Shown here one piece after another: positions 17,449-48,922 of a stretch of DNA of 64,000 nucleotides (the stretch's first letter is position 1; every line of letters begins with the position of its first letter). The translations under genes were made by a program, and so were the position numbers. This DNA comes from an uncultured Ignavibacteria bacterium (GTDB lineage Bacteria; Bacteroidota; Ignavibacteria; Ignavibacteriales; Ignavibacteriaceae). The stretch covers positions 26,275-90,274 of the forward strand of contig CAWFHZ010000016.1 in assembly GCA_963815785.1 (NCBI GenBank). The letters are read 5' to 3'. The notes beneath the pieces are model-generated. The model ran no database searches, was not told the origin of the DNA, and worked only from the letters and a program-made list of their open reading frames with translations.

Positions 17449-17452
17449 TAAT

Positions 17453-17695: not shown

Positions 17696-17730
17696 ATAAA
17701 TAAGTTCAATATGTAATATGCGGAGATACG

Positions 17731-18417: not shown

Positions 18418-18460
18418 ATTTTATAAGCATATTTTGAAATAATATTTCTTAACCATACAT

Positions 18461-19896: not shown

Positions 19897-19969
19897 AGCT
19901 GGCAATGGGACTCGAACCCGCAACCTGCTGATTACAAATCAGCTGCTCTACCAATTGAGCTATGCCAGC
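19897..19969 (-). tRNA. tRNA-Thr (anticodon UGU)
   Basis: The reverse complement is gctggca ta gctc aattggta gagc a gctga ttTGTaa tcagc aggtt gcggg ttcgagt cccat tgccagc t. This is a cloverleaf with 7-bp acceptor, D, anticodon and T arms. There is one C.A mismatch in the T stem, and CCA is not encoded. Confidence 0.85.
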
Positions 19970-20251
19970 GAAATAATTAACTATTAAAAAAGAACAATCC
20001 TACCTACCGGCAGGTATTACTTTTTTACTATCAAAATTTGAGCTTCAAAACTAATATTAATTCGCATTCTATGCAACAGACTAATTGTTGATTTCACGTC
20101 GTCAATCAACCTAAGAATTAAGTAATGCTAATTCATAAACTTAAATGTTTTATTTCAGTAATTCCCGGCAATTGAAAATAACGTCTCTTCTGGCTATTTT
20201 TAATAAGTGCTTGACATAAGTTTATCTTTCATTAACTGTCAGGACTGGTAT

Positions 20252-20464
20252 ATGAAAGAATTTTTTAGTGTGGAGGAAGTAGCAAAATTATTAGAGATTA
20301 CTCATTCCGGAGTTTTATATCATATTAAGAACCAAAAACTAAAGGCACACCAGGTCGGGAAAATCTACATCATTACTAAAGAGGACTTCGGAGATTTTCT
20401 TAAAAGACACAGGGAAGGAAAAAAGAAGCCCGTTAAGACTGTTCAGACAAAACTGAATTTTTAA
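20252..20464 (+). CDS. excisionase/MerR-type helix-turn-helix DNA-binding protein
   Basis: MKEFFSVEEVAKLLEITHSGVLYHIKNQKLKAHQVGKIYIITKEDFGDFL is the typical HTH_17/excisionase-family layout. I prefer the ATG at 20252 over the GTG at 20207. Confidence 0.7.
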   Translation: MKEFFSVEEVAKLLEITHSGVLYHIKNQKLKAHQVGKIYIITKEDFGDFLKRHREGKKKPVKTVQTKLNF

Positions 20465-20727
20465 TTGACTGTACTCTTAAAGAATTACTCAAATGCATTA
20501 GTTTTATCTGGATATTCTTACTGTAACATTAAGAAGCGCCGCAAAATCTTCTCCAATTTAATTTCATTTTATTACCTTTGAGTCAACTCAAAAAACAAAG
20601 TTCAAGTTTGAAACATAATTTATTCAAATGATCAATTAATTTGATAATCTTTCAGGAATCGTTTAAATCATATAAACAACTGATATATTTGATCCGGGAA
20701 TTTTTTCAAATCTTGCAAAACAGGAAA

Positions 20728-22410: not shown

Positions 22411-24984
22411 ATGCTCACCTTGGAAAACAAAAGATCTGACAAAATAAAAGATTTATTAGATGAGGCACTGGCCTTAAGTCCTTCAGAAAGAGAATCATTT
22501 TTAGATAAAAATTGTGAAGATGATCCCGTTCTGAAGAAGGAAGCAATTTCACTTTTAAAATCTTTGGAGACAACAGAGGATTTTTTAGAAAAATATCTTG
22601 ATGGTGAAAATAAAAAAGAAGATACTTTTACAGATAATCTTATTGGAAAGAATATCGGTTCTTATTTAATTGAAGGTATCGCAGGCAGAGGTGGAATGGG
22701 AGTTGTTTACAGGGGAATTAGGAATGATGATGAATTTGATCATAAAGTTGCTATAAAAATTATCGGGTATGGATTAAACTCAGAATACCTGTTAAAACGA
22801 TTCCAGATTGAACGACAAACGCTGGCGAATTTACAGCATCCTAATATTACACGTCTATTAGATGGCGGCAGAACCGCAGAAGGTTTACCGTTCCTCGTTA
22901 TGGAATACATTGAGGGGATTCCGATAACTAAATATGCTGTTCAGAATAAGTTAAATATTGAAGACAGATTGAAGATATTTCTTAAGGTTTGTGAAGCAGT
23001 TCAATACGCTCATCAGAATCTAATTATTCATCGTGATATAAAACCTGGAAACATTTTGGTTAATAATCTTGGAATTCCGAAACTTCTTGATTTTGGAATT
23101 GCGAAAATAATGGATGAAAATTTGTTGGAGGGAAATGAAGTTTTAACACGTACAAATCTTCTGAATTTTACACCAGAATTTGCAAGTCCCGAACAAATTC
23201 TTGGTGAGAAAATTACAACTTCAAGTGATATATATTCGCTTGGGGTTTTATTATATAATTTACTTACAGATTCTCTGCCATATCGTTTTAAAGGAACATC
23301 CATCACTTCACTAAGCAAAATAATTTCGGATGAAGATTATTTAAAACCAAGCGAAGCAGTTCAAAAAAAACTTAGTGAACAGCAGAATCAAATATCACAG
23401 GAATCAATTAAGCCCGAAATATTATGTAAAAAACTAAAGGGAGATCTCGATAAAATAGTTCTCAAATCAATGCATAATGAACCGGCAAGAAGATATAGAT
23501 CCGTTGAACAACTTGCCGAGGATATCAGAAGGTATCTTTCAGGATTACCGGTTCTTGCACAAGGCGATTCAAAAAGTTACATTTTTCTAAAGTTTATTCA
23601 GCGTCATAAAGCCGGGGTCTTATCAACCACTTTGTTTTTATTGCTGCTTATTACAAGTGTAATAATTATAGTATGGCAGGCTAATCTTACAAAAATTGAA
23701 ATGAACAAGGCCAAAATTGAAGCAATAAAGGCTGAAAAGGTAAGTATGTTTTTACAAAAAATGATTTCATCTGCTGATCCATATGAAGTTGGACGTGATG
23801 TTAAAGTTTACGATGTTGTTGAAAAGGCATCACACAATGTTGGGAAAGAATTTAAAGAGGAACCGAAAGTTGAAGCCGCAATTCATTCAACTCTTGGTAA
23901 TACGTTTACAAATCTTGGTGAATATAAAGAAGCGAAAGATCATCTTTTAAAAGCACTTAAATTAAATGAGGAGAACTACGGTACAAATAGTAATGAAACT
24001 GCAGGCAGTTTACATGACCTGGCTCTTTACTATCATTGGACCGGTGAATTGAGATTTGCCGATTCACTTTATAATAAAGCAGATTATATTTTCCGTAAAA
24101 CCGGTTCCAAACCGGGGTTAGGAATGGAAACTAACCTTAATGATTATGCAACACTTCAAACTGATCTTGGGAACTATGAGAAAGCAAAAAAAATGTTACT
24201 CGAAGATATGCAGATCGCAATAAACATTAAAGGCTTCAATAGTTATGAAACTGCTACTGTTATGAATAACCTTGCCATAGCTCTTGATTATTTGAAGGAT
24301 CTTAAAGGTGCAGAAGAATATTATTTGAAAGCCCAAAAAATTGACAGGAACCTGTATGGAGAGAACAGCCCGACTGTAGCTTCAACCTATAATAATCTGG
24401 CTTTTATTTATTCTGAAAGAAATGAATTACAAAAAGCTAAAGATTATTTTATGAAATCTTTTGAAATGAAAAAGGCATTACTCGGTAAAGATCATCCGGA
24501 TGTGGGACTGGCGTTAAATAACCTTGGATGTATTGAAATAAAATTAAAAAATTACAAAGCTGCTAAAGACTATCTTGAGAAATCAGTTATACAATTAAGA
24601 AAAACTTATCCTGAAGATCATTTTTGGATTGGAAGAAGTTACTACTGGTTAGGTTTGATTCATAATGAAACCGGGGACTATGGTACCGCTGAAATGTATT
24701 TAAAAAAATCACTCTCTATTAGAGAGAAAAATTATCCTAAAGGAAATTCAATTATATTCCAGACGGAAGGTGAACTTGGAATTTCTTATCTCAATCAAAA
24801 CGAATTAAAAAATGCCGAAAAATATCTTTTAGATGCTTACAACGGCTATGTTGTTGAGGATTCAAATTTAGATGACAACTCAATTAGAATTGTACAAAAT
24901 ATTATTACACTGTATAAGAAAAATTCAAATTCTGCAGAAGTTGAAAAATATTCTGAAATATTAAAGAATATCCAGCCGAAATGA
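22411..24984 (+). CDS. Ser/Thr protein kinase with a TM segment and C-terminal TPR repeats
   Basis: Hanks kinase motifs are present: GRGGMGVVY, VAIK, HRDIKPGNIL, DFGIAK, SPEQ. A TM helix follows (LSTTLFLLLLITSVIIIVW). Multiple TPR-like repeats follow that (NNLA..Y...G.Y..A...Y.KA). Confidence 0.9.
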   Translation: MLTLENKRSDKIKDLLDEALALSPSERESFLDKNCEDDPVLKKEAISLLKSLETTEDFLEKYLDGENKKEDTFTDNLIGKNIGSYLIEGIAGRGGMGVVYRGIRNDDEFDHKVAIKIIGYGLNSEYLLKRFQIERQTLANLQHPNITRLLDGGRTAEGLPFLVMEYIEGIPITKYAVQNKLNIEDRLKIFLKVCEAVQYAHQNLIIHRDIKPGNILVNNLGIPKLLDFGIAKIMDENLLEGNEVLTRTNLLNFTPEFASPEQILGEKITTSSDIYSLGVLLYNLLTDSLPYRFKGTSITSLSKIISDEDYLKPSEAVQKKLSEQQNQISQESIKPEILCKKLKGDLDKIVLKSMHNEPARRYRSVEQLAEDIRRYLSGLPVLAQGDSKSYIFLKFIQRHKAGVLSTTLFLLLLITSVIIIVWQANLTKIEMNKAKIEAIKAEKVSMFLQKMISSADPYEVGRDVKVYDVVEKASHNVGKEFKEEPKVEAAIHSTLGNTFTNLGEYKEAKDHLLKALKLNEENYGTNSNETAGSLHDLALYYHWTGELRFADSLYNKADYIFRKTGSKPGLGMETNLNDYATLQTDLGNYEKAKKMLLEDMQIAINIKGFNSYETATVMNNLAIALDYLKDLKGAEEYYLKAQKIDRNLYGENSPTVASTYNNLAFIYSERNELQKAKDYFMKSFEMKKALLGKDHPDVGLALNNLGCIEIKLKNYKAAKDYLEKSVIQLRKTYPEDHFWIGRSYYWLGLIHNETGDYGTAEMYLKKSLSIREKNYPKGNSIIFQTEGELGISYLNQNELKNAEKYLLDAYNGYVVEDSNLDDNSIRIVQNIITLYKKNSNSAEVEKYSEILKNIQPK

Positions 24985-26048
24985 AAACTTCGGACATTCC
25001 CGGAATTCGCTTAACCTCTCAACATATTTCTTCAAAAAAATATAAAACTGTAAAAGACCTCATAAATTATTTGGGTGCGATCCAGGCACAGGATTATTTA
25101 ATGTCCAGGTGGGCAATTGGGGTTAGATTAGAAAATTCTTCAGAAAAAATAATAAATGATGCAATAGACAAAGGCGAAATACTCAGGACACATTTACTGC
25201 GTCCTACGTGGCATTTCGTTTCTTCAGAAAATATATACTGGATGCTTGAACTTACAGCATCAAGAATTAAGAATTCTATGAGTTCAAGAAATAGGGAGTT
25301 AGATCTTACCAGGGAAGTGTTTAGGAAAAGTAATAGAATTATATATAATGTTTTAAAAGGAAATAATTATTTAACCAGAGAAGAACTTATTTTAATCTTA
25401 AATAAAGCAAAAATTAAGACCGATAAAAACAGGGCTTCACATCTTTTGGCTGAAGCAGAACTTTGCGGAATAATATGCAGCGGAAAAACCAAAGGGAACA
25501 AGCATACTTATGCATTGCTTGAAGAGAGAGTTTCGACGTCAGAAGTATATGAGAGAGAAAAATCACTTTCAAAACTAGCACTTATTTATTTCCAAAGTCG
25601 TGGACCTGCGACACTAAAAGACTTTTCGTGGTGGTCGGGATTAAATCTTACTGAATCGGGATTAGCACTTGAATTGATTAAATCAGAATTAATTTCTTTT
25701 AAGAATGATTCACAAACGTACTGGTTTTCAGATCGTGCAAAAGAAAATACAAATCAAAAAAATAAAATTTATCTGCTGCCTGCTTTCGATGAATACTTAA
25801 TCAGTTATACCAATAGATCAGCGGTTTTGATTTCTGAAGAACATAAATCCATGGTATCTACGAATGGGTTGTTTCGTCCCATAATAGTTTTTGATGGAAA
25901 AATAATCGGAACATGGAAACGAACTTTAAAAAGAGATAAAGTATCTGTCCAGTTTGAATATTTTAAGAACCCAAGTAAGAAAGTGGATCAATTAGTTAAA
26001 AAAGAAACCGAAAATTTAGGCAGATTTTTAGGAAAGAAACTCTCTTAA
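24981..26048 (+). CDS. winged-helix AlkZ/YcaQ-like protein (DNA crosslink-repair glycosylase family)
   Basis: Motifs seen: LGAIQAQDYLMSRWAIGVRL, LLRPTWHFV, LLPAFDEYLISY and FDGKIIGTWKR. These are typical of the YcaQ/AlkZ family. Its ATGA overlaps the kinase stop. Confidence 0.7.
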   Translation: MKTSDIPGIRLTSQHISSKKYKTVKDLINYLGAIQAQDYLMSRWAIGVRLENSSEKIINDAIDKGEILRTHLLRPTWHFVSSENIYWMLELTASRIKNSMSSRNRELDLTREVFRKSNRIIYNVLKGNNYLTREELILILNKAKIKTDKNRASHLLAEAELCGIICSGKTKGNKHTYALLEERVSTSEVYEREKSLSKLALIYFQSRGPATLKDFSWWSGLNLTESGLALELIKSELISFKNDSQTYWFSDRAKENTNQKNKIYLLPAFDEYLISYTNRSAVLISEEHKSMVSTNGLFRPIIVFDGKIIGTWKRTLKRDKVSVQFEYFKNPSKKVDQLVKKETENLGRFLGKKLS

Positions 26049-32959: not shown

Positions 32960-33677
32960 ATGGTAAGGATCTTCAGAAGCATCAGACTTAAACTTGCAGC
33001 GGAAAACAATGTTGTAAAATACCTTCGTTATGCATTTGGCGAAATCGTACTTGTTGTAATCGGAATTTTAATTGCTTTGCAGGTAAACAACTGGAATGAA
33101 AAAAGAAAAGACGCAAATTTTGAGCATGAGATTCTTTCACTTATCGATCAAAATCTTGAACAGGATTCTGTTTCCTTATCGTTTGAACTTTCCCATACAA
33201 AACTTGCTATACATTTAACTGATCGATTGCTAAAGCAAGTCGCATTAAAAAACTTTAATGATAGTTTGAATTACTGGATGGGAAAAATTATCTCCTTCGA
33301 ACGTTTTAGATCTCAATCCAGCGCTTATGAAATGTTGAAGTCCAAAGGTCTGGAAAACATCTCTGATAAAAAACTTCAGATGGCACTAATAACGTATTAT
33401 GACCAAAGTTTATACCAAATTTACCAGTCTCTGAATGACGTAGAATTATCTTTTAAACAAGATTGGATTCCGGTAATTAAAAAAGAATTTTCAGACTTTA
33501 ACTGGACAAATTACTGCATTCCAACTAATCCTGAAAGAATTCTTTAAAAAGCCATCTACAATCACTCTCTTTAAATTGTATCAGGATAACAGAAGAGGTC
33601 TTGTTAGAAATGGAGAAAAAGCACTCGATAAAATTGCTGAAATCAGAAAGCTTATTAAAAAAGACACTGGAAGATGA
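32960..33677 (+). pseudogene. paralogue 1 of the tandem N-anchor family (DUF6090-like, name from memory); one frameshift near 33535
   Basis: The N-terminus is MVRIFRSIRLKLAAENNVVKYLRYAFGEIVLVVIGILIALQVNNWNEKRK. After ..NPE the frame slips in a gaaagaa run and continues FFKKPSTITLFKLYQDNRRGLVRNGEKALDKIAEIRKLIKKDTGR*. Confidence 0.65.
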
Positions 33678-34479
33678 AAATTTTTAGAAATGTAAGACAA
33701 AAACTCGCAGCCGAAAACAGTGTTGCAAAATACTTGCGTTATGCCGTTGGCGAAATAGTTCTGGTAGTAATTGGAATTCTGATTGCATCCTTCAGGTTAA
33801 CAACTGGAATGAAAACCAGAAACAAAAAAAACGGGAAACAGTCTATTTACAAAATTTAAGTATTGATCTAAAGAAACAAATACAGCTGCAGGATATCTAT
33901 ATCGATTTTGAAGATATCTTCCTTCAGGATTGCAAAGATATAGTTGCACATTATGAACAAAATATCGGGTTCAAAAACATGGACTCCATTTTTCCAAAAA
34001 TAAATGATCTGAGTGCAAGAATATCATTCACCAATGCCAACACAACTCTTTCAGAAATGATAAATTCCGGAGACATCAATATTATTGATAATGAATCACT
34101 AAAAAAGGAACTTATAGAATTTAACCAGTTTATAGAAGGGTTTGCCAGGAATACAGTTAATAATAACACTAATCTGGTAGATCAGATTGTTGCAAGAAGC
34201 GTTGTTAAGAATAGCAACTTTGCATATTCTAATTATTCCAAAAGAATGAGAAGCAAAATTCAAAAAAATTATCAGATGAATTTTATTAATGTTAAAGACA
34301 ACACCCTGAAAACGATTGCAATTCAAAATCTCAATGAACCCAAAATTAGACTGGAGTTAATTAATGATGTGGTTTTTAGAAATGGTTTAGCCGAATTACA
34401 AAAATCAGGCGACGAAATGTTAAAAACAAAAGCAACACAATTGTTAAAACATATTGAAACAGAATTAAATCATAGATGA
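33674..34479 (+). pseudogene. paralogue 2 of the tandem N-anchor family; one frameshift near 33790
   Basis: The N-terminus is MKIFRNVRQKLAAENSVAKYLRYAVGEIVLVVIGILIA. After the shift it reads LQVNNWNENQKQKKRETVYLQNLSIDLKKQ... and joins track ORF 33979..34479. Its ATGA overlaps paralogue 1. Confidence 0.65.
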
Positions 34480-35216
34480 AAATTTTTAGGAACATCCGCA
34501 AAAAACTAGCTTCCGAACAAAAAGGAATGTCTTACCTTCGTTATGCAGTCGGAGAAATATTTCTTGTAGTTATCGGAATACTTATTGCGCTGCAGATTAA
34601 TAATTGGAATGAAAACCGAAAACTTGATAAGTCTAGACAAGAATACTATCGGCAGCTTTTAATTGATTTGAACAAGGATAAAGAATCAGCAAACTATTTT
34701 ATAGAGAGTTTTAAAAAAGAACACGAGGAATACAACAATTACCTGGAACTTTATGACAAAAAGAATTTAACTCCGTCCGAAGTTTATAACAAACTATTAA
34801 AGTTAAACCTGGCTTCCGTTTTTATGAAATTCAATTCTAACACCATAGAATCAATCCGCAGCAGCGGTGAGTTGATATTGTTTCCCCTGGAAATAAGAAA
34901 TAAATTATTGGATTTAAAAGTGTTGCAGGATAATATACTTGAGAGAGCAAAACATGAAGATAACCATAAAGCGGATGTTATCAGAAGTATGTCTCTAATA
35001 AGAGGAGCCTCAACACTTGATTCCCGACTGAAAAATCATCCTCAATTAAAAGCTTTCTTGAAATTTAATAACAATCTTCCGCAAATAATTCTGGGCTTAG
35101 ACGCAACACAAAGATGGAAAGATTTTTCAGAAACACATTCAGTTTCGAGCTTAACAAAAATGATAAAGGATATTAATGTTATCATCGGTTTGATTAAAAA
35201 TGAAATGAACAAATAA
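34476..35216 (+). CDS. paralogue 3 of the tandem N-anchor family
   Basis: The N-terminus is MKIFRNIRKKLASEQKGMSYLRYAVGEIFLVVIGILIALQINNWNENRK. The C-terminal 195 aa is divergent. Its ATGA overlaps paralogue 2. Confidence 0.75.
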   Translation: MKIFRNIRKKLASEQKGMSYLRYAVGEIFLVVIGILIALQINNWNENRKLDKSRQEYYRQLLIDLNKDKESANYFIESFKKEHEEYNNYLELYDKKNLTPSEVYNKLLKLNLASVFMKFNSNTIESIRSSGELILFPLEIRNKLLDLKVLQDNILERAKHEDNHKADVIRSMSLIRGASTLDSRLKNHPQLKAFLKFNNNLPQIILGLDATQRWKDFSETHSVSSLTKMIKDINVIIGLIKNEMNK

Positions 35217-35232
35217 ATTTTATTAAAACTTT

Positions 35233-36000
35233 ATGACCAGAATCTTCAGAAACATCAGACAAAAACTCGCAGCCGAAAATAGTGTTGCAAAATACCTGCG
35301 TTATGCAATTGGTGAAATCGTACTTGTAGTAATTGGAATTTTAATTGCTCTACAGGTGAACAATTGGAATGAACAAAGAAAATCGAAAATACATGAAAAA
35401 GAATTATATGGCCGAATATTAATGGATTTGAAAATTGATGAAGACAGAATAAACCAACATATTGATTATTTTAATAATGATTTGGAAATTCTTAATAATA
35501 TTTACCAGGAAACTCAGGGTTTTTCGAAAAGTGATTCCCTTGCGGACTTTGGTTCAATCCGGAGTTTTAGAATTTTCAATCTGGTCATTACCTCAAATTA
35601 TTCCAAAAGCACCAAAGAAATAAGCAACCCTGAAATTGAGAAAAGTTTGAATGAATATTTTGCAAGAGAACAGCTCATAAAAGATGCTTTAGAAAATATT
35701 CGAAATTTCAAGGAGAGCCATGTAAAACCCTTTCTGGCCAAATACGGCATCAATAATACAGGAGTGCTATTTAAGAACCGCCAATTAGATTATTATAAGC
35801 TTAGGGAAAAAAATATACTATCCCTTACAAAATTTAAAGCACAGTATGGTACCGTACAATTAGACCAACTGCTTTTTGGTATCGGTGTAAGAACTTCCTG
35901 GGCCAGGACAGAACTTCAACATATCTTGTCCATGAACGAAAAACTGCAATTGGATTTGATGAACGAATTGGGCGATAATAATCCATTTAATAAAGAATAA
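35233..36000 (+). CDS. paralogue 4 of the tandem N-anchor family
   Basis: The N-terminus is MTRIFRNIRQKLAAENSVAKYLRYAIGEIVLVVIGILIALQVNNWNEQRK. The C-terminal domain is divergent. Confidence 0.75.
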   Translation: MTRIFRNIRQKLAAENSVAKYLRYAIGEIVLVVIGILIALQVNNWNEQRKSKIHEKELYGRILMDLKIDEDRINQHIDYFNNDLEILNNIYQETQGFSKSDSLADFGSIRSFRIFNLVITSNYSKSTKEISNPEIEKSLNEYFAREQLIKDALENIRNFKESHVKPFLAKYGINNTGVLFKNRQLDYYKLREKNILSLTKFKAQYGTVQLDQLLFGIGVRTSWARTELQHILSMNEKLQLDLMNELGDNNPFNKE

Positions 36001-36031
36001 TGAAATTAAAGAAACAACCAACAAATAATTA

Positions 36032-36808
36032 ATGATTAAGTTCTTCAGAAATATAAGAAAGCAACTTGCTTCAGAAAACAAAGTAATGGCGTATTTGCGT
36101 TATGCTGTTGGCGAAATAGTACTTGTTGTTGTTGGTATTTTAATTGCACTTCAGGTTAACAACTGGAACGAACAGCGAAAACATAAAAATGAAGAAATAC
36201 AGTTTCTAAAAGGTTTTAAGAGAACCCTAAATGAAGATCTAAAGAACAATAATTGGAGGGGAAAGCAGTTTGAGTTAACCAGAGAATCGATTGATATCCT
36301 TCTCTCAAGCCTTAAACAAAATATGCCCTATAACGACTCGCTTTCCTACCATTTTGGTAGGATAACTCAAACCTGGAGACTCGCAACAAACAATGAGGTA
36401 TTTGAAACCTTAAAATCTTACAACTTAAATCTTATTTCGAATGAGAAATTACGGTATGAAATTGTAGGTTATTATTCTTACTCAGACAATTATCTTAAAT
36501 CTGATGTACAAACATATTTTTCAATTATTGATGATGCCAGTAAAAATATTTTCAATACAAGGTTTGATGCATTGTGGAACGGAAGCTACACGAGGAAATC
36601 CGAGAAGAGTGGAAATATTATCGATTCGAATCTACGTATGATTCCTAATGACTATGCCGAATTGAAACATGACAATAAATTTCTCTATTTCTTAAGAAGT
36701 TTAAAAAATCAATATTATTGGAAAATTGAAACGAATTTGAATAGAATAGACAAAAATGCAAATGCTTTGATTAAAAATATAGATAACGAATTAAATAAAA
36801 TAGAATAA
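36032..36808 (+). CDS. paralogue 5 of the tandem N-anchor family
   Basis: The N-terminus is MIKFFRNIRKQLASENKVMAYLRYAVGEIVLVVVGILIALQVNNWNEQRK. The C-terminal domain is divergent. Confidence 0.75.
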   Translation: MIKFFRNIRKQLASENKVMAYLRYAVGEIVLVVVGILIALQVNNWNEQRKHKNEEIQFLKGFKRTLNEDLKNNNWRGKQFELTRESIDILLSSLKQNMPYNDSLSYHFGRITQTWRLATNNEVFETLKSYNLNLISNEKLRYEIVGYYSYSDNYLKSDVQTYFSIIDDASKNIFNTRFDALWNGSYTRKSEKSGNIIDSNLRMIPNDYAELKHDNKFLYFLRSLKNQYYWKIETNLNRIDKNANALIKNIDNELNKIE

Positions 36809-36841
36809 TGAAAGCAGAACAAGTTAACCAACTAATAACTC

Positions 36842-37552
36842 GTGATTAAATTCTTCAGAAATATAAGAAAGCAACTTGCCTCAGAGAATAAAGTGATGGC
36901 ATACTTACGCTATGCTGTTGGAGAAATTGTTTTAGTTGTTATCGGGATTTTAATTGCTTTGCAGATTAACAACTGGAATGAATTAAGAAAACAAAATGTT
37001 GCTGAGACTGAATTTTTAGAAGGTGTGAAAAAAGATCTTACGCAAGACAAACAATATATCAAATTAGTCTTAAAGGAAATGGAACCGAAAATAGAGGCAT
37101 TTGACTTATTAAACAGTAAGGGGTTTTTAAAGTCTCAGAATAATAATATAACTTCCATTGACACATTATTACAAATTTATTTTTCAACAAAGGGGATACG
37201 TACATTTTATCCGGTGTCCGGTTCTTTTCAATCAGCTGTGTCCGGAAGTGAACTTAATAACTATAAAGATAAAGAAATCATCAGTTCAATCATTAAATTA
37301 TATAATTCAACTTATTCGAGATTAATTGATAACGGGAAAATACTGGATGACAGATGGGCATTTTTAAGAAAAAAATATATCCATCAATTCCGTACAGCAA
37401 ATTTTCATTTTACGGATAATGCAAAACTCTCTGAAATTATGGATGATATGTACTATCACTATCTTGAACTGCAATGGTATCGGGGAGTGTTAAAAGATAC
37501 TCTTGTTGAAATTGATGGATTATTAAAAAAGATAAATGATGGAATTCTTTAA
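36842..37552 (+). CDS. paralogue 6 of the tandem N-anchor family (GTG start)
   Basis: The N-terminus is (M)IKFFRNIRKQLASENKVMAYLRYAVGEIVLVVIGILIALQINNWNELRK. The C-terminal domain is divergent. Confidence 0.75.
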   Translation: MIKFFRNIRKQLASENKVMAYLRYAVGEIVLVVIGILIALQINNWNELRKQNVAETEFLEGVKKDLTQDKQYIKLVLKEMEPKIEAFDLLNSKGFLKSQNNNITSIDTLLQIYFSTKGIRTFYPVSGSFQSAVSGSELNNYKDKEIISSIIKLYNSTYSRLIDNGKILDDRWAFLRKKYIHQFRTANFHFTDNAKLSEIMDDMYYHYLELQWYRGVLKDTLVEIDGLLKKINDGIL

Positions 37553-37644: not shown

Positions 37645-40600
37645 ATGAAAAAGAAAACACAACAGCTAAATCCCGAACAAAAAATTTCTGAACTTCAAAA
37701 AGAGTTATTGAAAAAAACCCGCGAACTTGAAATTGAAGCCTCACTTGAAAGAGTGAGAGCCGTTGCCATGGAAATGTATAAATCAGACGACCTGCTGAAT
37801 GTAAGTGAAGTTTTGTATAAAGAACTCTACAGGTTAGGATTCAATGAGATCAGAAATGCGATGATCAATATTCATAATGATGAGAATAAAACTTTTCTTA
37901 ATTATGATTATTCCGATGAAATTGGCAGAAGCAAAACGCTTTTAAATTTTAACACACATCCCGTAATGGAAAAACAAATAAAGCAGTCACGAATTGCAAA
38001 TGATGCTTTTTCAGAAGCAGTTTACAAGGGAAAGAATTTAGAGCAATGGAAAGAGTTTAGAAGAAAATACGGAGAAAAAGAAGATCCGAGAATTGAAAAG
38101 ATAAAAGCGCTTTACTACTATTTCTATTCAATAGGTACCGGAACAATCGGCATTTCAACTTTTAGTCAAATCGATAAAGAAAAACTGGTTTTGCTCAAAA
38201 GATTCAGAAATGTTTTCAGCTTGGCTTATCGAAGATATGCAGATATAGCTTTAGCAGAAGCACAGGCAAGAGAAGCGCTAATTGAAGCTTCACTTGAAAG
38301 AGTTCGTGCTGTTGCTATGAGCATGCAGTAAGTCGGATGATCTGCTTAGCATCTGCGAAGTTTCATTCAAAGAATTTAAAAAATTAGGATTTGATAATCT
38401 CAGAAACGCTATCATTCATATTCTTAATGATGAGCAAAAATATTTTATGGATTATGATTTTTCTGATTATCTGGGCGGCGGCATTAACAAAATAAGTTAT
38501 AACTCGCACCCGATGCTCAACGAGCATCTGAAAAAACTTAAAAAGGCAAATGATGCTTTTGCAGAGGTTGTTATCGATGGTGATCAGCTGGAAAGCTGGA
38601 AAGATTTCCGGCGGAGAGGCGGACAGCAGGATGATCCGAGACTCGATGATATTCCTGCACTTTATTATTATCTCTATTCTATAGGTGTTGGGGATATAGG
38701 TATTTCAACATTTAAACAGATTGATGAATCACAAATAAAAATTCTGAAAAGATTCCGGAATGTTTTTGATCTGGCATACCGAAGGTATAAGGACATATCT
38801 CAGGCAGAAGCACAGGCGCGGGAAGCACAGATTGAATTGGCACTCGAAAGAGTCCGTGCAAGAACAATGGCTATGCACAACAGCAGCGAACTTGCAGAAA
38901 CAACCGCTGTACTTTTTCAGCAGTTTGTAGCTTTGGGAATAACTCCGAAAAGATGTTTTATCGGAATTATCGATAAGGATAAAAAAAGTGAAGATGTTTA
39001 TCTTACAAGTAACGAAGGAAAGGTAATTCCAGGCACTGAATCAGTACCAATGATGGAACAGGAATATTTGAAAAAAGTATATAATGCCTGGAACAAAAAG
39101 AAGGAACACATTTCATATAAACTGCAGGGACAACAAAGGGTCGACTGGACAACTTATATTATGAACAAAGCAAAGCTGTCTCTACCGGAATATGCATCAG
39201 ATAAATTAAACCTCGACCAATTGCAAAATGAGCCGGCAGTATTTAATTACTTTTTCTTTTCAAGCGGCCACATTGGTCTGCATACTCTCGAAGATATTTC
39301 TGAAGAGGAAATTTCTATACTGAAAAGATTTTCAGCCGTATTTGAACAAACCTACACCCGTTTCCTCGATCTGCAAAAAGCAGAAACACAGGCAAGGGAA
39401 GCTGAAATTCAACTTGCTTTAGAAAGAGTACGTGCGCGAACAATGGCTATGCATAAAAGTGATGAGCTGGCTGAAACGGCAGCTATCCTATTTCAGCAAA
39501 TGACACAGCTTGGGGTTACACCTGAACGGATAAATATCTGTCTGATTAAAGAAGAAGATAACGTCCTTGAAGTGTGGGCTACAGATCAACAAGGTGTTAA
39601 AATCAGTCATCATTTTAATACAAGTCTTGATGAGCCGACAACAGGAAAAAGAGTTTATGATGCATGGAAAGAAAAAAAGAAATCACTTATCATTGACCTG
39701 AGCGGAAAAGAACTAAGTGATTGGATCCGGTATGTGCGGGAAGTTATGGGTATGACGATTAAAGCTGAGCTGATAAGAGAACATCGGATACATAGTGTGG
39801 CTTTCTTCTCTCAAGGTATGATATTAACAACTACACCTGAACCATTACCCAAAGAGTCAATAAAATTACTGGAACGTTTTGCAGAAGTATTCAATTTAAC
39901 CTATCGTCGTTTTCTCGATCTGCAAAAAGCAGAAGCGCAGGCAAGGGAAGCACAAATTGAAGTGGCTCTTGAAAGGGTGCGCGCAAGAACCATGGCCATG
40001 CAGAAAAGTGAAGAACTCAAGGAAGTTATTCGGGTCGTTTATGAACAAATCGCTCATTTAAAAATAAATGTGGACCATGCCGGTTTTGTAGTGGATTATA
40101 CACCAAAAGGTGACTGGCATTTTTGGATTGCTGATCAGCAGGAAATACCATCTAAAATCACACATCCATACTTTGATTCAGTTTGGGCGCATCAATTTAA
40201 TGAAGCTAAAGAAAAAGGAACAGATGTTTTTACCACCAGTCTGAACTTCGAAGAAAAAAATAAATTTTACAGCGATATGTTTAAACACCTTCCAGACTTA
40301 TCTGAGGAAGCAAAGGATTTTTATTTTAGTTGCCCTGGCTTAGCCGGCTCGACAGCATTAATGCAGAATGTTTCGCTCTACATTGAGAATTTTTCAGGCA
40401 TTCCTTATTCGGATGAAGAGAATAAAATTCTGATCCGATTTGGTAAAGTTTTCCAGCAGACGTATACCCGCTTCCTCGATCTGCAGAAAGCTGAGGCACA
40501 AGCAAGAGAATCTCAGATAGAAGCAGCTTTGGAAAGAGTAAGAACTAATGCAATGGCTATGCAAAATAGTGATGATCTTGCCAAAATTGTAGAAATAGTT

Positions 40601-43486
40601 TTTACCGAACTCAGGAAAGTTGGTTTTCAAACCAGTCGTTGTGGAATAGGAATAATTGAAAGTGCCGAAACTAAAAAAGTTGATATCTGGTCTACCACAC
40701 TAGCAGATGATGAGATATCAATTCAAATCTCAGGTGATGAAATTTTAGAGGGACATGCATTATTGGACGGTATAATTGAACACTGGGTAAATCAAACAGA
40801 ATTCTCTTATGTACTTGAAGGTGATGACTTTCTGAAGTACTACCAGAGAGTTAAAAAAACAAACTTTCATTTACCAGATTACGCACAGAAAAATTTATCA
40901 AAAGATGAAAAACAGTATTACTACATGGTTCCATGTAAAGCTGGTGGTATATATGCCTTCAGCTTGGTTCCGTTTACTGATGAAGTTAAAAAAATATTGA
41001 GAAGATTTATTGAAGTCTTTCAATTAGCATATACCCGCTATGAAGACCTACAAAAAGCAGAAGCACAGGCAAGAGAAGCTAAGATAGAAGCAGCTTTAGA
41101 AAAAGTTCGTTCACGTTCATTAGCCATGCACAAGAGCAAAGACCTGGAGATAGTTATTACAGTTCTTTTACAACAATTGGAGGAAATTGGGATTCTTTTA
41201 GATACAGCCTCAATAGTTATTCCTTCAAAGGATATGAAAACATCTGTCGATTGGACCGCAAGTAAAAAATACAAGTATTCGAAGGGTTTTATCGTACCTT
41301 TCATGGAGAATGGGAAGCCGGTACTAAGTGGTGAAATAAACAGGGACATGGTTGCAGCCCTGATATCGGGGAAAGAATTTACCAAATCGTATTCTATGAA
41401 AGAAAAAAATAAATACTATCAAAATTTATTTGATAAATCCGGGTTTAGTGAAACCCCTGAAGCACGTAAAAAATTTCTTTTGAGCCTTCCTGGCATATCA
41501 GTTTCAACGGCGGGAATGTAGACCTGCAAAAAGCAGAAGCACAGGCAAGAGAAGCACAAATTGAAGCTGCCTTGGAAAGAGTTCGAAGTCGAAGTATGGG
41601 TATGCATAAAAGTAATGAGTTAAAAGATGTGGTCAGATTGCTCTACAAAGAATTTCGAATTCTTGAAACAGGTTTTGATTCTGTCAATATCCAGTTAAAC
41701 CTGGATTCTTCCAAAGATATCAATTTCTGGGCTTCGGTAGAAGAAGATGTATACCCGGAATTATATCATTTGCCGTACTCTGAGTTACCGATATTTGAAA
41801 AAATTAAAAACGCTTTTAATTCACCAGGAGAAGGATTTTTTGAGTATTCATCAAACAAAGAAGAAAAGAATGCCTTTTTCAGTGGTATATTCAAAGTCCA
41901 GCCGGTACCGCTTAAAAGAAAAAAAATAATTCAAAATGCTGAAGGAATGGTTATGATGGGATGGTTTCACAGGCATTCCGGCATTGACATCGTGCGATAC
42001 AATCTCAAACGTTTCAGTGAAGAAGAGAAGGACATAGTAAAGCGATTCGCTGCTGCATTCGAACAGACCTATATCCGCTTCACTGATCTTCAAAAAGCAG
42101 AAACACAGGCACGAGAAGCAATTAAACAGGCATCCCTGGATAGAGTGCGCGGCGAAATTGCAAGTATGCGCACTGCTGAAGATTTAAATCGCATTACACC
42201 TATTATCTGGCGTGAACTAAAAACACTCGAGGTTCCCTTTATCAGGTGCGGTGTTTTTATTATTAATGAGGAAGATGAAGTAACGCAGGTTTATTTAACC
42301 ACGCCTGATGGTAAAGCACTCGGAGTTTTGAATTTGAGATTTGATGCAAATGAACTCACCCGTAATACAGTTAAGTTCTGGAGAAAAAATGAAATCTACA
42401 GAGAGCACTGGAATAAAGAAGAGTTTTTAAACTGGACAAAATCAATGATGAAACTCGGACAGGTTCAGAATGCAGAAACTTACCAGGGTTCATCAAATCC
42501 CCCTGATTCACTTCACCTTCACTTTGTTCCATTTACACAGGGGATGTTGTACGTTGGTGATATTTCTCCTCTTACTGATGAAAAACTCGATCTTGTAAAA
42601 ACATTGGCAGAAGCTTTCTCAATTGCCTATGCACGTTACGAGGATTTTAAAAATCTTGAAGATGCAAAAAATAAAATAGAGATTACATTAAATGAATTAA
42701 AAGCCGCACAGGCACAGCTTATCCATTCAGAAAAGATGGCATCACTCGGTGAACTGACTGCAGGCATAGCTCACGAAATTAAAAATCCTTTAAACTTTGT
42801 GAACAATTTTTCAGAGATAAGCCGGGAATTATTAATGAAATAGAAGATGAATTACAGAAAAATGATAAAGAAGAAGTGCATTGATCTATTCTAAAAGATT
42901 TAAAACTAAATCTTGAAAAAATAAATCAGCACGGTAAACGAGCTGATTCGATTGTAAAAGGAATGCTTCTTCACTCAAGAGGAACTTCGGGAGAAAAAAC
43001 ATTAACGGATATAAATGATTTGCTTGATCAGTATGTTAATCTTGCCTACCACGGAATGAGAGCACAGAATAAAGAATTCAATATAACGATTGAAAAAGAT
43101 TACGACGAATCATTGGAAAAGATAAGTGTAATACCGCAGGATATCAGCAGAGTATTTTTAAACATAATTAACAATTCCTGCTATGCGGCGTATGATAAGA
43201 AAAAGAAAAACAATGATGAAAATTTCTCTCCGATATCTGAAAGTCTCAACAAAAAAACTGAATGGGAAAATTGAAGTAAGAATTGCTGATAACGGAAACG
43301 GAATTCCAAAAGATAATACTTGATAAAATATTCCAGCCTTTCTTTACAACAAAGCCATCCGGCGAAGGAACAGGTTTAGGATTATCGTTAAGTTATGATA
43401 TAGTTACGAAAGTGCACGGAGGTGAATTGAAAGTTGAAACTACTGAAGGTAAAGGAACCGAATTCATAATCATTTTGAAAAATTGA
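37645..43486 (+). pseudogene. giant sensor histidine kinase with nine tandem modules of about 185 aa; interrupted by frameshifts, a deletion and an in-frame TGA
   Basis: Track ORFs 37645..38331, 38447..41521, 41572..42843, 42963..43274 and 43283..43486 join into one reading when shifted. Modules are delimited by ..LKRF..VF...[37 protein letters not shown]. The C-terminus holds HisKA ([27 protein letters not shown]) and HATPase ([23 protein letters not shown]). Confidence 0.8.
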
Positions 43487-43495: not shown

Positions 43496-46400
43496 ATGAA
43501 AAATAACTTCACAAAAATCCTTTATACTGTAGTATGTTGCGTTATAATACTTAACTCGGGGTTGGCAACTATTACCTTCGGACAACAAAGAAATTATTTG
43601 TTCGAAAATATTTCAGATTCCAGAAGGACTCTCAAATTCTAACGTGAATTATATCTTCCAGGACACAATGGCTTTCTCTGGATTTCAACTGCAGACGGAC
43701 TTAACAGATATGATGGAAATAATATAAAAGTATTTAAAAACGATCCGAATGATTCCACTACAATACCAACGAATGATTGCTATGCAATTACAGAGGATTC
43801 GGACGGATTTATCTGGGTTGGTGTTTCAAATAATATTATTGCAAAATATGATCCCAAAAATGAAACTTTTCAAAGCTATCACATTCAAACTTCAGGTGTC
43901 ACTAAAATATCATTATTTTATTCGGCACATGTTAGACTCAAAAGGAAATTTATGGTTTGGATCTTCGTATCATGGAATACAAAAATTCAACAAAGCAAAA
44001 AATAAGTTTGAACAGATGCACTCTTGAGGTAATCCAATAAAAATATTCAATGGGGAAATCTCTATGATATAACTGAATTAAAGAATGGAAGTCTACTTAG
44101 CTAGCTGATTACGCAAATGGTATAAAAATATACAATGAGAAGCTCAATTTATTTCAGCCATATTTACCTCAAAACCAATTTCAGTCCGGATCAAATTTCA
44201 AAAATCTATCAAGACATAGCCGGAAATATTTGGTTCGGAGGTAGAAATGCTACTTTAATCAAATACTCTCCCAGCTTATAATACTATTGAAAATATCGAT
44301 ATTTTTGGACCGAACAAAAATGGCAAGGGAAGCTATGACAAATAGATGGAATCGTTCAGGATGATGAAGGATATTTATGGGTAGGAATTTATTCGAGGTG
44401 AATTTCACAGAATTGATGTCAAATACAAAAAGCATTCAGAAAATACGATTACAGTAATCAACAAATTCAGATATTGCAGCAAGAATAGTTATTAAGTCAA
44501 CTAATTAAGAGACAAATATGGTAGTAGTCTGGATGGCGACATGTGGTAAAGGACTCATCAAATTTGATCCGCTTAGAGAACCGTTTAATTTTTATAAGTT
44601 TATTGCTAACCGGGGCTGCAAGTTCCAGCGCAAATTTTTCAACAGTAATAGCGGGTTTACAGCAGAGCAAAGAAATAATAGTCGGAACATCTGAAAAGGG
44701 GTTATTTACTTATGATACTGGAAAATCATAAGTCTGAATAACTTAAAATCTCAAAATTGACAAATCTAATGCTGCAGGAGGGAAAATAAATATTCAGGGT
44801 CTTGCTGTTGATAATGAGGGTAATAAATGGTTTGCATATAATAATCTTGGTCTGCACAGAATTGACAAGAATAATTTGTTAAGCACTTATCTAAATCGCC
44901 TAATGCAAATAAAACCACAAATATTATATAAACTCGATAAAGACTAGATTCATCAGGTAATATCTGGATTGCCTCAAGACAGGGATTTGAGAAATACGAA
45001 CCCGTCCCAAAATCAATATACGTTCCTACCAACGATAATGAATAAACCGATAAGAGAGGAACTAAACGCAAAAAATACATAGAATAACTGAGTCCAGAAA
45101 CCTATAGCTTCCATATTAAAAGTTGGTGAAGCCTCAAATCTGGAAAAAACATTCACCCTGAATTCAGACCAGAAAGTTTTAATAATTGGTCTAGGAGAGG
45201 GTCAAATGGATGTCGGCGTGGGTCTTTCAGATGCCGGATCATTATTAAACAAAGATGGTAAGACAATCTGGTCGATGAATGATTTATATAAAACATTTAA
45301 TGACGGGGGAGGATTTAAAAACCGGATTGCACTTGGATGTTTAAATTTGAAAAAGGGAGATTATAAAATTACATATGCAACAGATGTGGGTCACTCTTAC
45401 GGCACTTGGAATGTAACTCCACCTCCTGATTCCCTGTGGTACGGAATTCAGGTATTGAGTTTAACTGAATCCGATTATAACAGCATTAACCAAATGAATG
45501 AAAAAGAAATTAACTCCAATAAATTTATGCATACGGAAATAGGCACAAGTATTGAATTCAGTAAGCGGTACCGTAATGTTCTTTGGTTAGGTTCTACACA
45601 AAGCGGATTTTTTAAATATGATTTAACAACAGGTAATTTTAAGCAATATAATTTTGACTCCCTGAATGTTAGTTCTCTGAACAATTATATTAATTGCATT
45701 TTTGAAGATCGGGAAGGAATAGTCTGGATTGCAACAGCAAACAGTTTACTAAGATTTGATCCCTCCACTGAAAATATTAACAGATTTGATCAAAAAGACG
45801 GCCTTCCCTCCAATCAAATAAATTCGATTCTAGAAGATCTTGAAGGGAGTCTTTGGATTAACACCTCAGCAGGATTATCCAAACTGAATAAAAATGCACC
45901 TAAGGATAAATGGAATTTTGTCAACTTTGATGCTCAGGACGGGCTTCAGGGTTTCACCAGCAGTAAGGCAAACTGGATTGATAAAGACGGAGAAATATTT
46001 TTAGGAGGAATCGATGGGTTTACATATTTCTATCCCGGCAAAATTAATGAGATAAAACCGGATATAGTTATAGAGGACATAAAAGTTTCTGATATCTCAC
46101 TTAAATCAGATTCCTCTGAAATTAAGACTGATAAAAGTGTAATGAGGCTGAATGAACTTAATCTTTCATATACTCAGAATAATTTATCCTTTGAGTTTGC
46201 TTCGATCCATTATTCAAGACCTGAAAAAAATAAAATTATGTACAGACTGGAGGGTTTTGATAATCACTGGCTGTCCAATGATCGGGATTTCGCTTCATAC
46301 AATAATCTTTCTCCGGGTGAGTACACATTTATGGTTAAAGGCTCAAACGGTGATGGGATCTGGAATGAAGGTGGAAAGTCAATAAAAATTATTATCAATC

Positions 46401-47376
46401 CTCCATGGTGGAAAACCATTGTTGCATACATTAGCTACTTTTTCGTGTTTGGTTTTTTAGTTTTTGGTGTAGACAGGTTCCAGAGGAGACGTTTAATTGA
46501 AAAAGAACGAACCATTGCAAAAGAGAAAGAGCTTGAGCAGGCAAAAGAAATTGAAAAAGCCTATGACGAATTGAAGGCTACCCAGGCACAGCTTATTCAT
46601 TCAGAAAAGATGGCTTCACTCGGTGAACTAACAGCAGGTATTGCACACGAAATAAAAAATCCTTTAAACTTCTATTAATAATTTTTCTGAGATAAGTACT
46701 GAATTGCTGGATGAAATGCAGACCGAATTAAATAGCAACGACAAAAAGAGTGAGAGTGTAAAGGAGATAGTAGAAAATTTGAAACAAAACCTGGAAAAAA
46801 TTAATCTGCATGGAAAACGTGCAGATTCCATCGTGAAAGGAATGCTTCTTCACTCAAGAGGGACTTCCGGAGAAAAAACACCAACAGATATAAATGATCT
46901 GCTGGATCAATATGTAACTCTTGCTTATCACGGATTGAGGGCACAGGATAAAGAATTTAATATTACAATTCAAAAAGATTATGATAAGTCAATTGAAAAG
47001 ATAGATGTTGTTCCGCAGGATATAAGCAGGGTATTTCTCAACATAGTTAACAATGCCTGCTATGCGGCAAATGAAAAAAAGAAACAGGATAATGGTAATT
47101 TTAATCCGGTACTTAAAGTATCAACGAAAAATTTACAAAACAGTGTTGAAATCCACATAATAGATAACGGAAATGGAATACCGTTTATCAGCAAAAGAAA
47201 ATATATTTAATCCTTTTTTTACAACCAAACCAACCGGCGAAGGAACGGGTCTGGGACTTTCGCTAAGCTATGATATCGTTACAAAGATGCACGGCGGGAA
47301 TATAGCTTTTAAAACTGAAGAAGGTAAATACACAGAATTTATAATAACATTACCTAAACACAAAGAGGCAAAATGA
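43496..47376 (+). pseudogene. second sensor histidine kinase (propeller repeats / Y_Y_Y / TM / HisKA-HATPase); N-terminal 1.7 kb heavily fragmented
   Basis: It starts MKNNFTKILYTVVCCVIILNSGLA. The stretch 43.5-45.2 kb gives only short propeller-repeat fragments in all three frames (ADGLNRYDGNNIKVFKNDPNDSTTIP, GFIWVG, GNLWFGS). 45206..46678 is intact through Y_Y_Y and the TM segment. Further shifts lie near 46675 and 47190. The C-terminal kinase core is paralogous to 42.66-43.49 kb. Confidence 0.75.
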
Positions 47377-47735
47377 AGTTATTAGTAGTAGATGATGAAA
47401 GCGATGTTCAGTTTTTATTCCAGCAGAAATTCAGGAAGGAAATAAAAGCCGGTACAATTCAGATAAAATATGCTTTAAACGGAATTTCCGCTCTTGAATT
47501 GCTTGAATCAATTGAAAATAAATATGAATATTTGATTTTAACGGATATTAATATGCCCGAGATGAATGGAATAGAACTGCTCAAAAATATTAAAGCCAGG
47601 TATCCTTCTCTAAAAGTGATTATAATAACAGCTTACGGAGATGAACAGAATTTTAATATGGCAAAGCAATTGGGAGCGTATGATTATTTTACTAAGCCGC
47701 TTCAGTTTGAGCTGCTCAAAGAGAGATTAAGTTAA
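47373..47735 (+). CDS. single-domain response regulator (CheY-like receiver)
   Basis: The pattern LLVVDDE...[10 protein letters not shown]...ITAYGD...[11 protein letters not shown] identifies a receiver. Its ATGA overlaps the kinase stop. Confidence 0.85.
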
Positions 47736-47761
47736 TAAATATCATTAAATGGAATTATAAA

Positions 47762-48922
47762 ATGGAATTAGCACGAATACTGGTGGTAGATGACGAACCG
47801 GATCTCCAGGAATTAATCCGTCAGAAATTCCGGAATAAAATTAAAGCAAATGAATATGAATTTCATTTTGCTGAAAACGGTGTTGAAGCGCTTGATAAAT
47901 TAACTGCCGACGGAACAATTGATCTTATTTTAACTGACATCAATATGCCGGTGATGGACGGGCTTACACTGCTTTCCAGAATAAATGAGCTTAATAATAA
48001 ATTTCTGCGTTCAGTTATTGTTTCCGCATACGGAGATATGGAAAATATTAGAACTGCCATGAACAGGGGAGCGTATGATTTCGTGACCAAACCCATTGAT
48101 TTAAAGGACCTGGAAATAACCATAGAAAAATCACTGAAGGAAATTGAAAAGTCCAAAGAAGCCTTATCGTCACACGATAAATTAATTGCACTGAAGCAGG
48201 AGCTTGAGATTGCAAAGGTAATTCAGACTTCTATTCTTCCAAAAACATTTCCTGAAAAAAAAGAATTTGAAATATTCGCAAAAATGATTCCCGCTAAAGA
48301 AGTAGGTGGTGATCTGTATGATTTTTTCATGCTGGATAAATACAGGCTTGCAGTTGTATTGGGAGATGTATCAGGCAAAGGAATTGCTGCAGCTATGCTG
48401 ATGGCGGTTAGTAAGACTTTAATTAAGGCAACTGCCTACAAAGGAATGCCCGCAGACAGTGTTTTATTTGAAGTAAATAATCTTCTTGCGGATGATAGTC
48501 CCCCGAATATGTTTGTTACAGTTTTTTACGGGGTTCTCGATACAAGAAATGGTTCATTCGAATATTCAAACGGGGGACACAACGCCCCGTTTCTGATTTC
48601 CTCTGACGGCAATATTACTCAGCTCGATAATATCGGTGGTTTACTGCTGGGAGCAATGAAAGATTCGGAATATGAATCAAATATAATAACACTGAAACCT
48701 GGTGATTATCTGGTTTTATATACTGACGGAGTGACAGAGGCATTTAATAAAGACGATGAGGAATATGAAGATGAACGTCTTATTAATTCACTACGGAATG
48801 CCGGAAAGGAAAACGCCGGTAAACTTGTAGAAAGAGTTATTGCTGATGTTCAGAAATTTTCTGAGGGAGTCGAACAGTCCGATGATATAACATGCTTAGT
48901 CTTAAAATACTTAAGCTTATAG
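47762..48922 (+). CDS. response regulator fused to a PP2C/SpoIIE-type phosphatase (RsbU-like)
   Basis: The receiver shows ILVVDDEPD, TDINMPVMDG and KP. The SpoIIE-type domain shows GGDLYDF, VLGDVSGKGIAAAMLMA, LYTDGVTEA and DDITCLVL. Confidence 0.85.
   Translation: MELARILVVDDEPDLQELIRQKFRNKIKANEYEFHFAENGVEALDKLTADGTIDLILTDINMPVMDGLTLLSRINELNNKFLRSVIVSAYGDMENIRTAMNRGAYDFVTKPIDLKDLEITIEKSLKEIEKSKEALSSHDKLIALKQELEIAKVIQTSILPKTFPEKKEFEIFAKMIPAKEVGGDLYDFFMLDKYRLAVVLGDVSGKGIAAAMLMAVSKTLIKATAYKGMPADSVLFEVNNLLADDSPPNMFVTVFYGVLDTRNGSFEYSNGGHNAPFLISSDGNITQLDNIGGLLLGAMKDSEYESNIITLKPGDYLVLYTDGVTEAFNKDDEEYEDERLINSLRNAGKENAGKLVERVIADVQKFSEGVEQSDDITCLVLKYLSL

Follow-up and report, generated by a model that had tools for sequence, protein, structure and literature searches.

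The subject of this work is the locus at positions 37645-43486 of a 64,000-nucleotide (nt) stretch of DNA from an uncultured Ignavibacteria bacterium, the whole of which is called the window here. The locus is a sensor histidine kinase devoid of transmembrane segments, in which nine stacked sensor-like domains are joined by long signaling-type helices. Judging from structure models, these domains (modules, hereafter) are cryptic GAF-like domains set in a tandem-GAF-type arrangement. Comparison of related loci suggests that the modules behave as cassettes, the order and number of which differ between all species of the genus, with the first (D) and last (E) module types fixed. Taking identity, architecture, mechanism, evolution, and the state of this copy together in a single judgment, we are moderately confident that the locus is the ortholog of an intact gene, coding for about 1,780 amino acids (aa), that occupies the same place in related genomes, and that its product would be a soluble, presumably dimeric sensor kinase of the HisKA type. 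The intact orthologs P0001 (1,791 aa) and P0002 (1,778 aa) are located in conserved synteny.

Nine tandem modules followed by a kinase core

The layout of the locus is marked by a 21-nt motif, GCAGAAGCACAGGCAAGRGAA, which an earlier reading of the bare sequence (the original prediction) had placed at 38254, 38804, 39380, 39929, 40490, 41057, 41533, and 42097. The motif is present at all eight of these sites with zero to three mismatches, against a chance expectation of zero matches in dinucleotide shuffles. The successive distances between motifs are 550, 576, 549, 561, 567, 476, and 564 nt, so the predicted spacing of 549-576 nt with one exception is borne out; the odd value of 476 nt is explained by a deletion of about 115 nt in module 7 (lesion 2, see below). 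The translation stitched across the lesions comes to about 1,949 aa, in which a module profile detects nine modules, each scoring 214-270 bits except for the truncated module 7 (96 bits), followed by HisKA and HATPase_c, as had been predicted. These two domains were matched on pieces of the open reading frame (ORF), with expectation values (E) of 7e-5 for HisKA and 1.6e-12 for HATPase_c. The kinase boxes are visible in the stitched translation (H-box AHEIKNP, NIINN, DNGNGIP, and GTGLGL), that is, a DHp domain with the H-box histidine and an HATPase_c domain with N, G1, and G2 boxes, as in HisKA-type kinases. Also in agreement with the original prediction, no convincing transmembrane segment was found in the stitched protein; the highest 19-residue Kyte-Doolittle mean, 1.61, lies within the core of module 7.

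Linker included, the nine modules are 21-58% identical to one another, whereas single modules are 81-97% identical to modules of orthologs in other species. The inner domains are thus old and divergent, and not the outcome of a recent duplication, as the first reading of this DNA had held. By the core types defined below, the module string of the window reads D D P A B C ? U E. The features of the gene, all on the plus strand, are the following.

37645-43486, plus: whole disrupted gene, comprising an N-terminal cap helix, nine GAF-like modules, HisKA/DHp, and HATPase_c (module profile; orthologs P0001/P0002)
37645-37743, plus: cap helix mimicking a linker (RELEIEASLERVRA), ahead of module 1
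37744-38292, plus: module 1, type D, the usual N-terminal type; 95% identical to module 1 of P0002
38293-38842, plus: module 2, type D, bearing lesion 1 (alignment to the ortholog)
38843-39418, plus: module 3, type P, without a close counterpart in P0001, P0002, or G003
39419-39967, plus: module 4, type A, modeled singly; 90-92% identical to module 7 (the penultimate one) of P0001 and P0002
39968-40528, plus: module 5, type B, second half of the two-module model; 83% identical to module 2 of P0001
40529-41095, plus: module 6, type C (module comparison, type clustering)
41096-41571, plus: module 7, truncated by lesion 2; profile match ends at position 135 of 214; 92% identical to the intact module 1 of P0003
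41572-42135, plus: module 8, type U; 84% identical to module 5 of P0002
42136-42720, plus: module 9, type E, output-adjacent adapter whose C-terminal helix continues into the DHp helix; shares 81-82% identity with the final modules of P0001 and P0002
42721-43486, plus: HisKA/DHp (H-box AHEIKNP) and HATPase_c core, bearing lesions 3-6 (domain matches, ortholog alignment)
38254-42117, plus: eight copies of the linker tract (AEAQARE core), each within an uninterrupted connector helix about 48-51 residues long (motif scan, models)

A cryptic GAF-like fold

The original prediction had proposed modeling of single modules as a check for a GAF- or PAS-like fold. The AlphaFold2 model of module 4 (predicted local distance difference test score, pLDDT, 92; predicted template modeling score 0.84) shows an alpha/beta core between an N-terminal helix and a C-terminal helix of 51 residues, and is GAF-like. 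When this model was compared with the PDB using Foldseek, almost all of the listed matches contained GAF domains (43 at E <= 0.001), with E-values from 1e-5 and a probability of 1.0, and the top-ranked ones were GAF domains without exception. They include a cyanobacteriochrome dual-sensor kinase (6oap), the GAF domain of Nlh2 (4g3v), the tandem GAF domains of CyaB2 (1ykd), the Lcd1 GAF domain with cyclic AMP (5w10), and many phytochromes. Sequence identity to the GAF structures is 9-17%, and the template modeling (TM) scores, normalized to single-GAF targets, are 0.58-0.62. In the model of two consecutive modules (pLDDT 83.5), the cores are bridged by a single unbroken helix (residues 161-208); this model aligns over both domains to the GAF-PHY unit of Cph2 and of SyB-Cph1, to GAF-A/B of PDE2A and PDE6, and to CyaB2, in alignments of about 400-450 columns with E-values of 1e-8 to 1e-10. 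At the level of the fold, the modeled types, A and B, are accordingly assigned to the GAF-like superfamily.

The relationship is cryptic in sequence comparisons. The 23 modules of an alignment that covers the window and two orthologous loci, scanned singly, gave no match to Pfam GAF, GAF_2, or GAF_3 even at E <= 10, nor did long pieces; likewise, an NCBIfam scan and a profile search of PDB sequences with the modules found no match. Two points weigh against the GAF-like reading: Foldseek gives moderate TM-scores (0.45-0.6 with the single module, 0.35-0.46 with the pair), and the modeled modules represent types A and B only.

A near-invariant connector helix

Conservation in these proteins is concentrated between the cores. 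Among 1,446 full-length modules, all positions with at least 80% conservation fall in the connector and none in the core (residues 48-168), an alpha/beta unit of about 130 residues without family-wide conserved residues. The connector is one continuous, near-invariant helix of about 48 residues with the pattern RF..VF...Y.RF.DL.KAE.QAREA.IE.ALE.VR.....M; its invariant residues include R21, R180, D183, and E188, numbered as in module 4.

The signaling helix (S-helix) has been defined as a helix of about 40 residues between two signaling domains, whose central heptad bears a strongly conserved ERT signature (Anantharaman, Balaji and Aravind 2006, PMC1592074). The original prediction described the connectors as being of this type, which holds insofar as they are helices of the required length that link signaling domains. 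It does not hold for the signature: the connector reads LERVRARTMAM, LERVRAVAMSM, or a third variant, the tract being ERVRA(R/V/E)(T/A/I), in which invariance is confined to the first R after V (R21), the R-T pair showing no conservation. A canonical S-helix was rejected on these grounds.

At the DNA level, codon identity within the 11-residue linker tract is 0.68, compared with 0.49 expected; the corresponding values are 0.42 and 0.37 for the rest of the linker, and 0.44 and 0.46 for the module cores. The conserved peptide combined with codon bias would account for most of the nucleotide motif. Nucleotide-level homogenization of the whole linker was considered and rejected, the excess of codon identity being limited to the 11-residue tract. 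The exact tracts common to pairs of linkers are 13.5 nt long at the median and 29 nt at most.

A large family with positional rules

The window protein, with its nine profile matches, belongs to a family that is characterized by tandem profile-matching modules and the invariant connector. A word-based search with a 1,066-aa intact piece returned more than 3,651 hits of 1,000-1,860 aa, with Ignavibacteria, Chitinophagaceae, and Sphingobacteriales as the named sources. An exhaustive search with the module profile yielded at least 3,263 clusters at 50% identity, 1,964 of these at E <= 1e-30. The original prediction suggested determining the distribution of module number among proteins with this linker; it spans 4-17 modules, or 5-17 with a median of 8-9 in the examined proteins, which are a size-biased set, and the largest member contains 17 modules in 3,880 aa. 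Given this range and median, nine modules are ordinary in the family, and the architecture is not the unusual one that it had appeared to be.

The outputs were surveyed in 258 family proteins (257 fetched ones and the stitched window protein). HisKA/HATPase is found in 165, SpoIIE in 28, and a class III cyclase in 9; the remaining 56 are cut off at contig ends. Clustering at a minimum of 40% identity sorted 2,131 cores into some 25 recurrent types, whose placement obeys rules: all 97 occurrences of type E are at the end of the array, type D comes first in 135 proteins, and types A, B, and C take any interior position.

The original prediction named a well-known repeated domain arrangement, already described for such kinases, as the outcome that would count against it. 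The fold and its arrangement are indeed known, namely GAF in tandem, but no description of this family was found in the literature or in the Pfam and NCBIfam profile libraries. The clusters of the family number in the thousands in Ignavibacteria and Bacteroidota, with soil metagenomes as the source of many; they are missed by domain databases, and the members are annotated only as 'ATP-binding protein' or 'hypothetical protein'. The cryptic GAF-like assignment, together with the approximately 25 types and the positional grammar, offers a handle for naming the family and a starting point for a search of ligands type by type. The family also lets one ask how many inputs are integrated along one helical spine.

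The same data bear on a different interpretation, namely, that the modules are structural beads of a long rod, be it a scaffold, a ruler, or a platform for protein-protein contacts, and that only the helix and the terminal module signal. Such an interpretation would account for the lack of any core position conserved across the 1,446 modules, all conservation being in the connector, for the lack of a cNMP (cyclic nucleoside monophosphate)-type or other recognizable binding motif, and for a module number that is free to vary from 4 to 17. Nevertheless, we deem it improbable: purifying selection maintains the roughly 25 recurrent core types at 80-97% identity between species, a pattern that suits type-specific functions better than filler; three different output enzymes are fed by the same arrays, as expected of input modules; and the GAF fold is a classical small-molecule sensor.

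Cassette shuffling within the genus

At the syntenic locus, ten complete orthologs from the same genus each carry a different string of 4-8 modules: DDBCUOAE, DABBBACE, DDCALCE, DABPBCE, DDAULE, DBPCE, DRAAE, DR.UE, DDBCE, and DAUE. All ten begin with D and finish with E, and the string in the window is DDPABC.UE. The same cassette can be found in different places. Module 4 of the window, with 90-92% identity, corresponds to the penultimate module of P0001 and P0002, and module 7, with 92% identity, to the first module of P0003.

Compared with the G003/L005 lineage, the flanks of the window are 84-98% identical and modules 1-2 are 95% identical, and the interior of the gene is 74-87% identical and rearranged. 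Synonymous divergence (dS) from the same relative is 0.17 in modules 1-2 and 1.3 in module 9 plus the kinase core. The block of 95% identity stops at 38883, where a linker ends; since linkers are conserved everywhere, this breakpoint can be placed with limited resolution only.

The near-invariant connector and the fixed D and E types at the two ends may make up a natural plug-and-play system, in which recombination at the DNA of the conserved 11-residue linker tract would insert, delete, and move GAF-like cassettes in frame. We put this forward as a tentative proposal that may well prove wrong. If true, each species would have its own combination of inputs on one kinase, and the broken copies, here and in two congeners, would be by-products of a recombination-prone design; the deletion in module 7, which ends beside the longest (29-nt) intragenic repeat, would be one example. 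Species-level reshuffling on an invariant connector amounts to a natural experiment on the design of modular sensors, from which the engineering of chimeric sensors could take guidance.

Six lesions: recent inactivation or local consensus error

The original prediction treated 37645-43486 as one kinase gene. This part of it fails: under translation table 11, the stretch is not a single ORF, the successive frames are 1, 2, 1, 0, 1, and 2, and module 7 is truncated. Base-by-base DNA alignment to the intact orthologs, and to the 92%-identical module of P0003, mapped six disabling lesions, namely, four 1-nt frameshifts, one in-frame TGA, and one deletion of about 115 nt. They are listed here, followed by the adjacent kinase gene.

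38329: lesion 1, an extra T (CAG-T-AAG versus CAG-AAG in the ortholog that is 95% identical in DNA over modules 1-2); frame 1 to 2
About 41519: lesion 2, a deletion of about 115 nt; the 39 missing residues comprise the final two strands of module 7 and the beginning of its connector helix; stop at 41519; frame 2 to 1
About 42830: lesion 3, -1
42882: lesion 4, +3 nt with an in-frame TGA
About 43237: lesion 5, +1
About 43319: lesion 6, +1
43496-47360, plus: neighboring Reg_prop/Y_Y_Y histidine kinase, also broken (frame analysis)

The kinase core alone carries three frameshifts and one TGA, and so lacks the uninterrupted frame of a functional HisKA kinase. The longest exact tract common to two linkers of the gene (29 nt) belongs to the pair on either side of the truncated module 7. 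In the Reg_prop/Y_Y_Y kinase directly downstream, there are many frame switches, some only tens of bases apart, and the in-frame sequence is still well conserved compared with its orthologs.

We lean slightly toward a recent, real inactivation of this kinase pair. Splits affect only 2 of the genome's 50 kinase cores, namely the adjacent pair described here, and the other 48 are intact; ORFs of at least 150 aa cover 0.87 of the genome, a normal value. A generally error-ridden assembly was ruled out by these two observations. An old pseudogene was also ruled out, by the absence of dN (nonsynonymous divergence) acceleration and by dN/dS values of 0.05-0.14: the sequence still looks selected, a property by which very recent inactivation and consensus error are not separable.

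The principal rival is that both the kinase and its neighbor are intact and functional in the organism and that the six lesions are local consensus errors, possibly caused by co-occurring strains whose differing module orders confused assembly or polishing at a hypervariable locus. We rate it a serious contender, at somewhat below even chances, and a substantial set of observations weighs on its side and against real inactivation. For module 9 plus the kinase core, dN on the window branch is 0.047, compared with 0.048 and 0.068 for two intact orthologs, that is, without excess, and dN/dS is 0.14 in modules 1-2. Single-base indels make up four of the six lesions; the frame switches of the neighboring kinase are dense despite its well-conserved sequence; and the genome is in 22 contigs with an estimated completeness of 95.7%. 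Contig C16 of this genome (G000), where 38.2-47.4 kb of the window corresponds to about 64.5-73.7 kb, has the lowest long-ORF coverage among the large contigs, 0.75 versus 0.87 genome-wide. Furthermore, with two other assemblies of the genus, 3 of 13 are broken at this same hypervariable locus, which could reflect a locus-specific assembly problem.

Several features nonetheless weigh against consensus error. The 48 other kinase cores and long genes nearby (1,212, 1,099, and 857 aa) are intact, implying that the assembly is not generally noisy. None of the six lesions lies within a homopolymer run, and both the deletion of about 115 nt (lesion 2) and the +3 nt change with a stop (lesion 4) are atypical of such errors. 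Moreover, the relative-rate test is blind to an inactivation younger than roughly 1-2% neutral divergence, so its outcome does not strongly favor an artifact. Recent inactivation keeps a slight lead in our assessment, and the gene in this genome should not be annotated as a functional nine-sensor kinase until the reads are checked.

That the sequence as it stands yields one full-length protein, through programmed frameshifting or an alternative genetic code, is effectively refuted. The single point in its favor is that the stitched pieces line up as one protein. The kinds of lesion are mixed (+1, -1, +3 with TGA, and a deletion of about 115 nt) and have no common sequence context, the off-frames hold stops of all three kinds, the orthologs encode the same protein in a single frame, and 39 residues of the fold are missing from module 7.

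The two other broken copies are an orthologous multi-module kinase in four ORF pieces at L016 (G008:C1:25500-33000) and another in three pieces at L017 (G001:C4:1-5000). The breaks in G001 and G008 fit frequent decay and a hard-to-assemble locus alike. A scan of metagenomes with module 3 as the query did not recover another assembly carrying this version of the gene. Separately, a possible third split kinase core was noticed on the minus strand of G000 contig C13 (reverse-complement coordinates 396076-397149), where two hits, to profile positions 4-170 and 172-263, are 361 nt apart, as an insertion or a break would leave them.

Proposed mechanism and genomic neighborhood

HisKA kinases act as dimers. 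Combining this property with the analogy to tandem-GAF and phytochrome proteins, we infer a mechanism in which the connector helices of two chains would form a long parallel helical spine, with the GAF-like cores attached as side beads. Ligand binding, or another change, in any core would shift the spine, and the type-E module would relay the change into the DHp helix, thereby setting kinase activity. The output may be aimed at receiver proteins encoded downstream (47373-48922), which are candidate partners. The gene order of the receiver region is kept in L005, and its two genes are as follows.

47373-47735, plus: intact stand-alone receiver, candidate downstream partner of the kinase cluster
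47762-48922, plus: intact receiver-SpoIIE phosphatase, candidate downstream partner of the kinase cluster

Signaling genes are dense across the window. Directly upstream of the kinase, at 32960-37552 on the plus strand, there are five tandem paralogs that match DUF6090 and one ORF without a Pfam match (33979-34479). Over part of this array, the DNA matches that of G003 at 98% identity; relative to L005, the window contains an additional copy between the array and the kinase. In relatives, a TPR-containing histidine kinase is located between the two kinases (L004 15405-17408, L005 6428-8497); it is absent from the window, where the two meet at the 43486/43496 junction. Farther away, a gene for a Ser/Thr protein kinase with TPR repeats (857 aa; 22411-26048, plus strand) has a 4-nt overlap with the start of a gene for an AlkZ-like DNA glycosylase. 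A region of about 4 kilobases (kb) at 16557-20641 is without an ORF of at least 120 aa and contains one tRNA gene (19897-19969, minus strand). Coverage by long ORFs is likewise low from 58.7 to 64 kb and further along contig C16.

Comparison with known systems

The tandem GAF proteins CyaB2 (1ykd), PDE2A (3ibj), and PDE6 resemble the present modules in that GAF-type cores are joined by a long helix and lead to a catalytic output; two GAF domains plus a long helix, a feature of the CyaB/PDE type, are reproduced in the two-module model, which aligns to 1ykd, 3ibj, and PDE6C over both domains. However, CyaB2 and the PDEs possess two GAF domains, compared with nine modules here (4-17 in the family), and in contrast to them, the modules have no Pfam GAF match and are only 9-17% identical in sequence. 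Tandem GAF domains that bind cNMPs have conserved ligand-pocket residues, with an NKFDE-type signature. No such pocket is recognizable here, as no core position reaches 80% conservation across the 1,446 modules; with no conserved core residues, there is no cNMP-type motif. The distribution of conservation is inverted as well: the connector is the best-conserved part in this family, whereas inter-GAF coiled coils are poorly conserved (PMC1592074).

GAF domains also occur in the inputs of GAF-PP2C/SpoIIE (RsbU-type) phosphatases and of class III cyclases, and in the family, arrays likewise lead to SpoIIE in 28 proteins and to a cyclase in 9. The copy in the window differs by its kinase output, and the array length and cassette grammar were found in no literature description of those proteins.

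The best structural matches are phytochrome and cyanobacteriochrome kinases, including the GAF-PHY units of Cph2 (4bwi) and SyB-Cph1 (8w26), and 6oap. In these proteins, as in the family described here, GAF-type domains on a helical spine feed a HisKA kinase or another output, and cyanobacteriochromes with multiple GAF domains exist. Unlike phytochromes, the window protein has no PAS domain or knot, no PHY tongue, and no conserved bilin-binding cysteine. The family is found in Ignavibacteria and Bacteroidota rather than in cyanobacteria, and its arrays are longer, with a near-invariant connector.

With the S-helix, finally, the connector shares its length of about 40-50 residues, its place between signaling domains, and polar residues conserved at apparent core positions; it is presumably a parallel dimer as well, because it feeds DHp. 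In contrast to the S-helix, the connector extends the last helix of one GAF-like core without a break and is followed by the first helix of the next, which makes it an inter-GAF linker and not a separate module.

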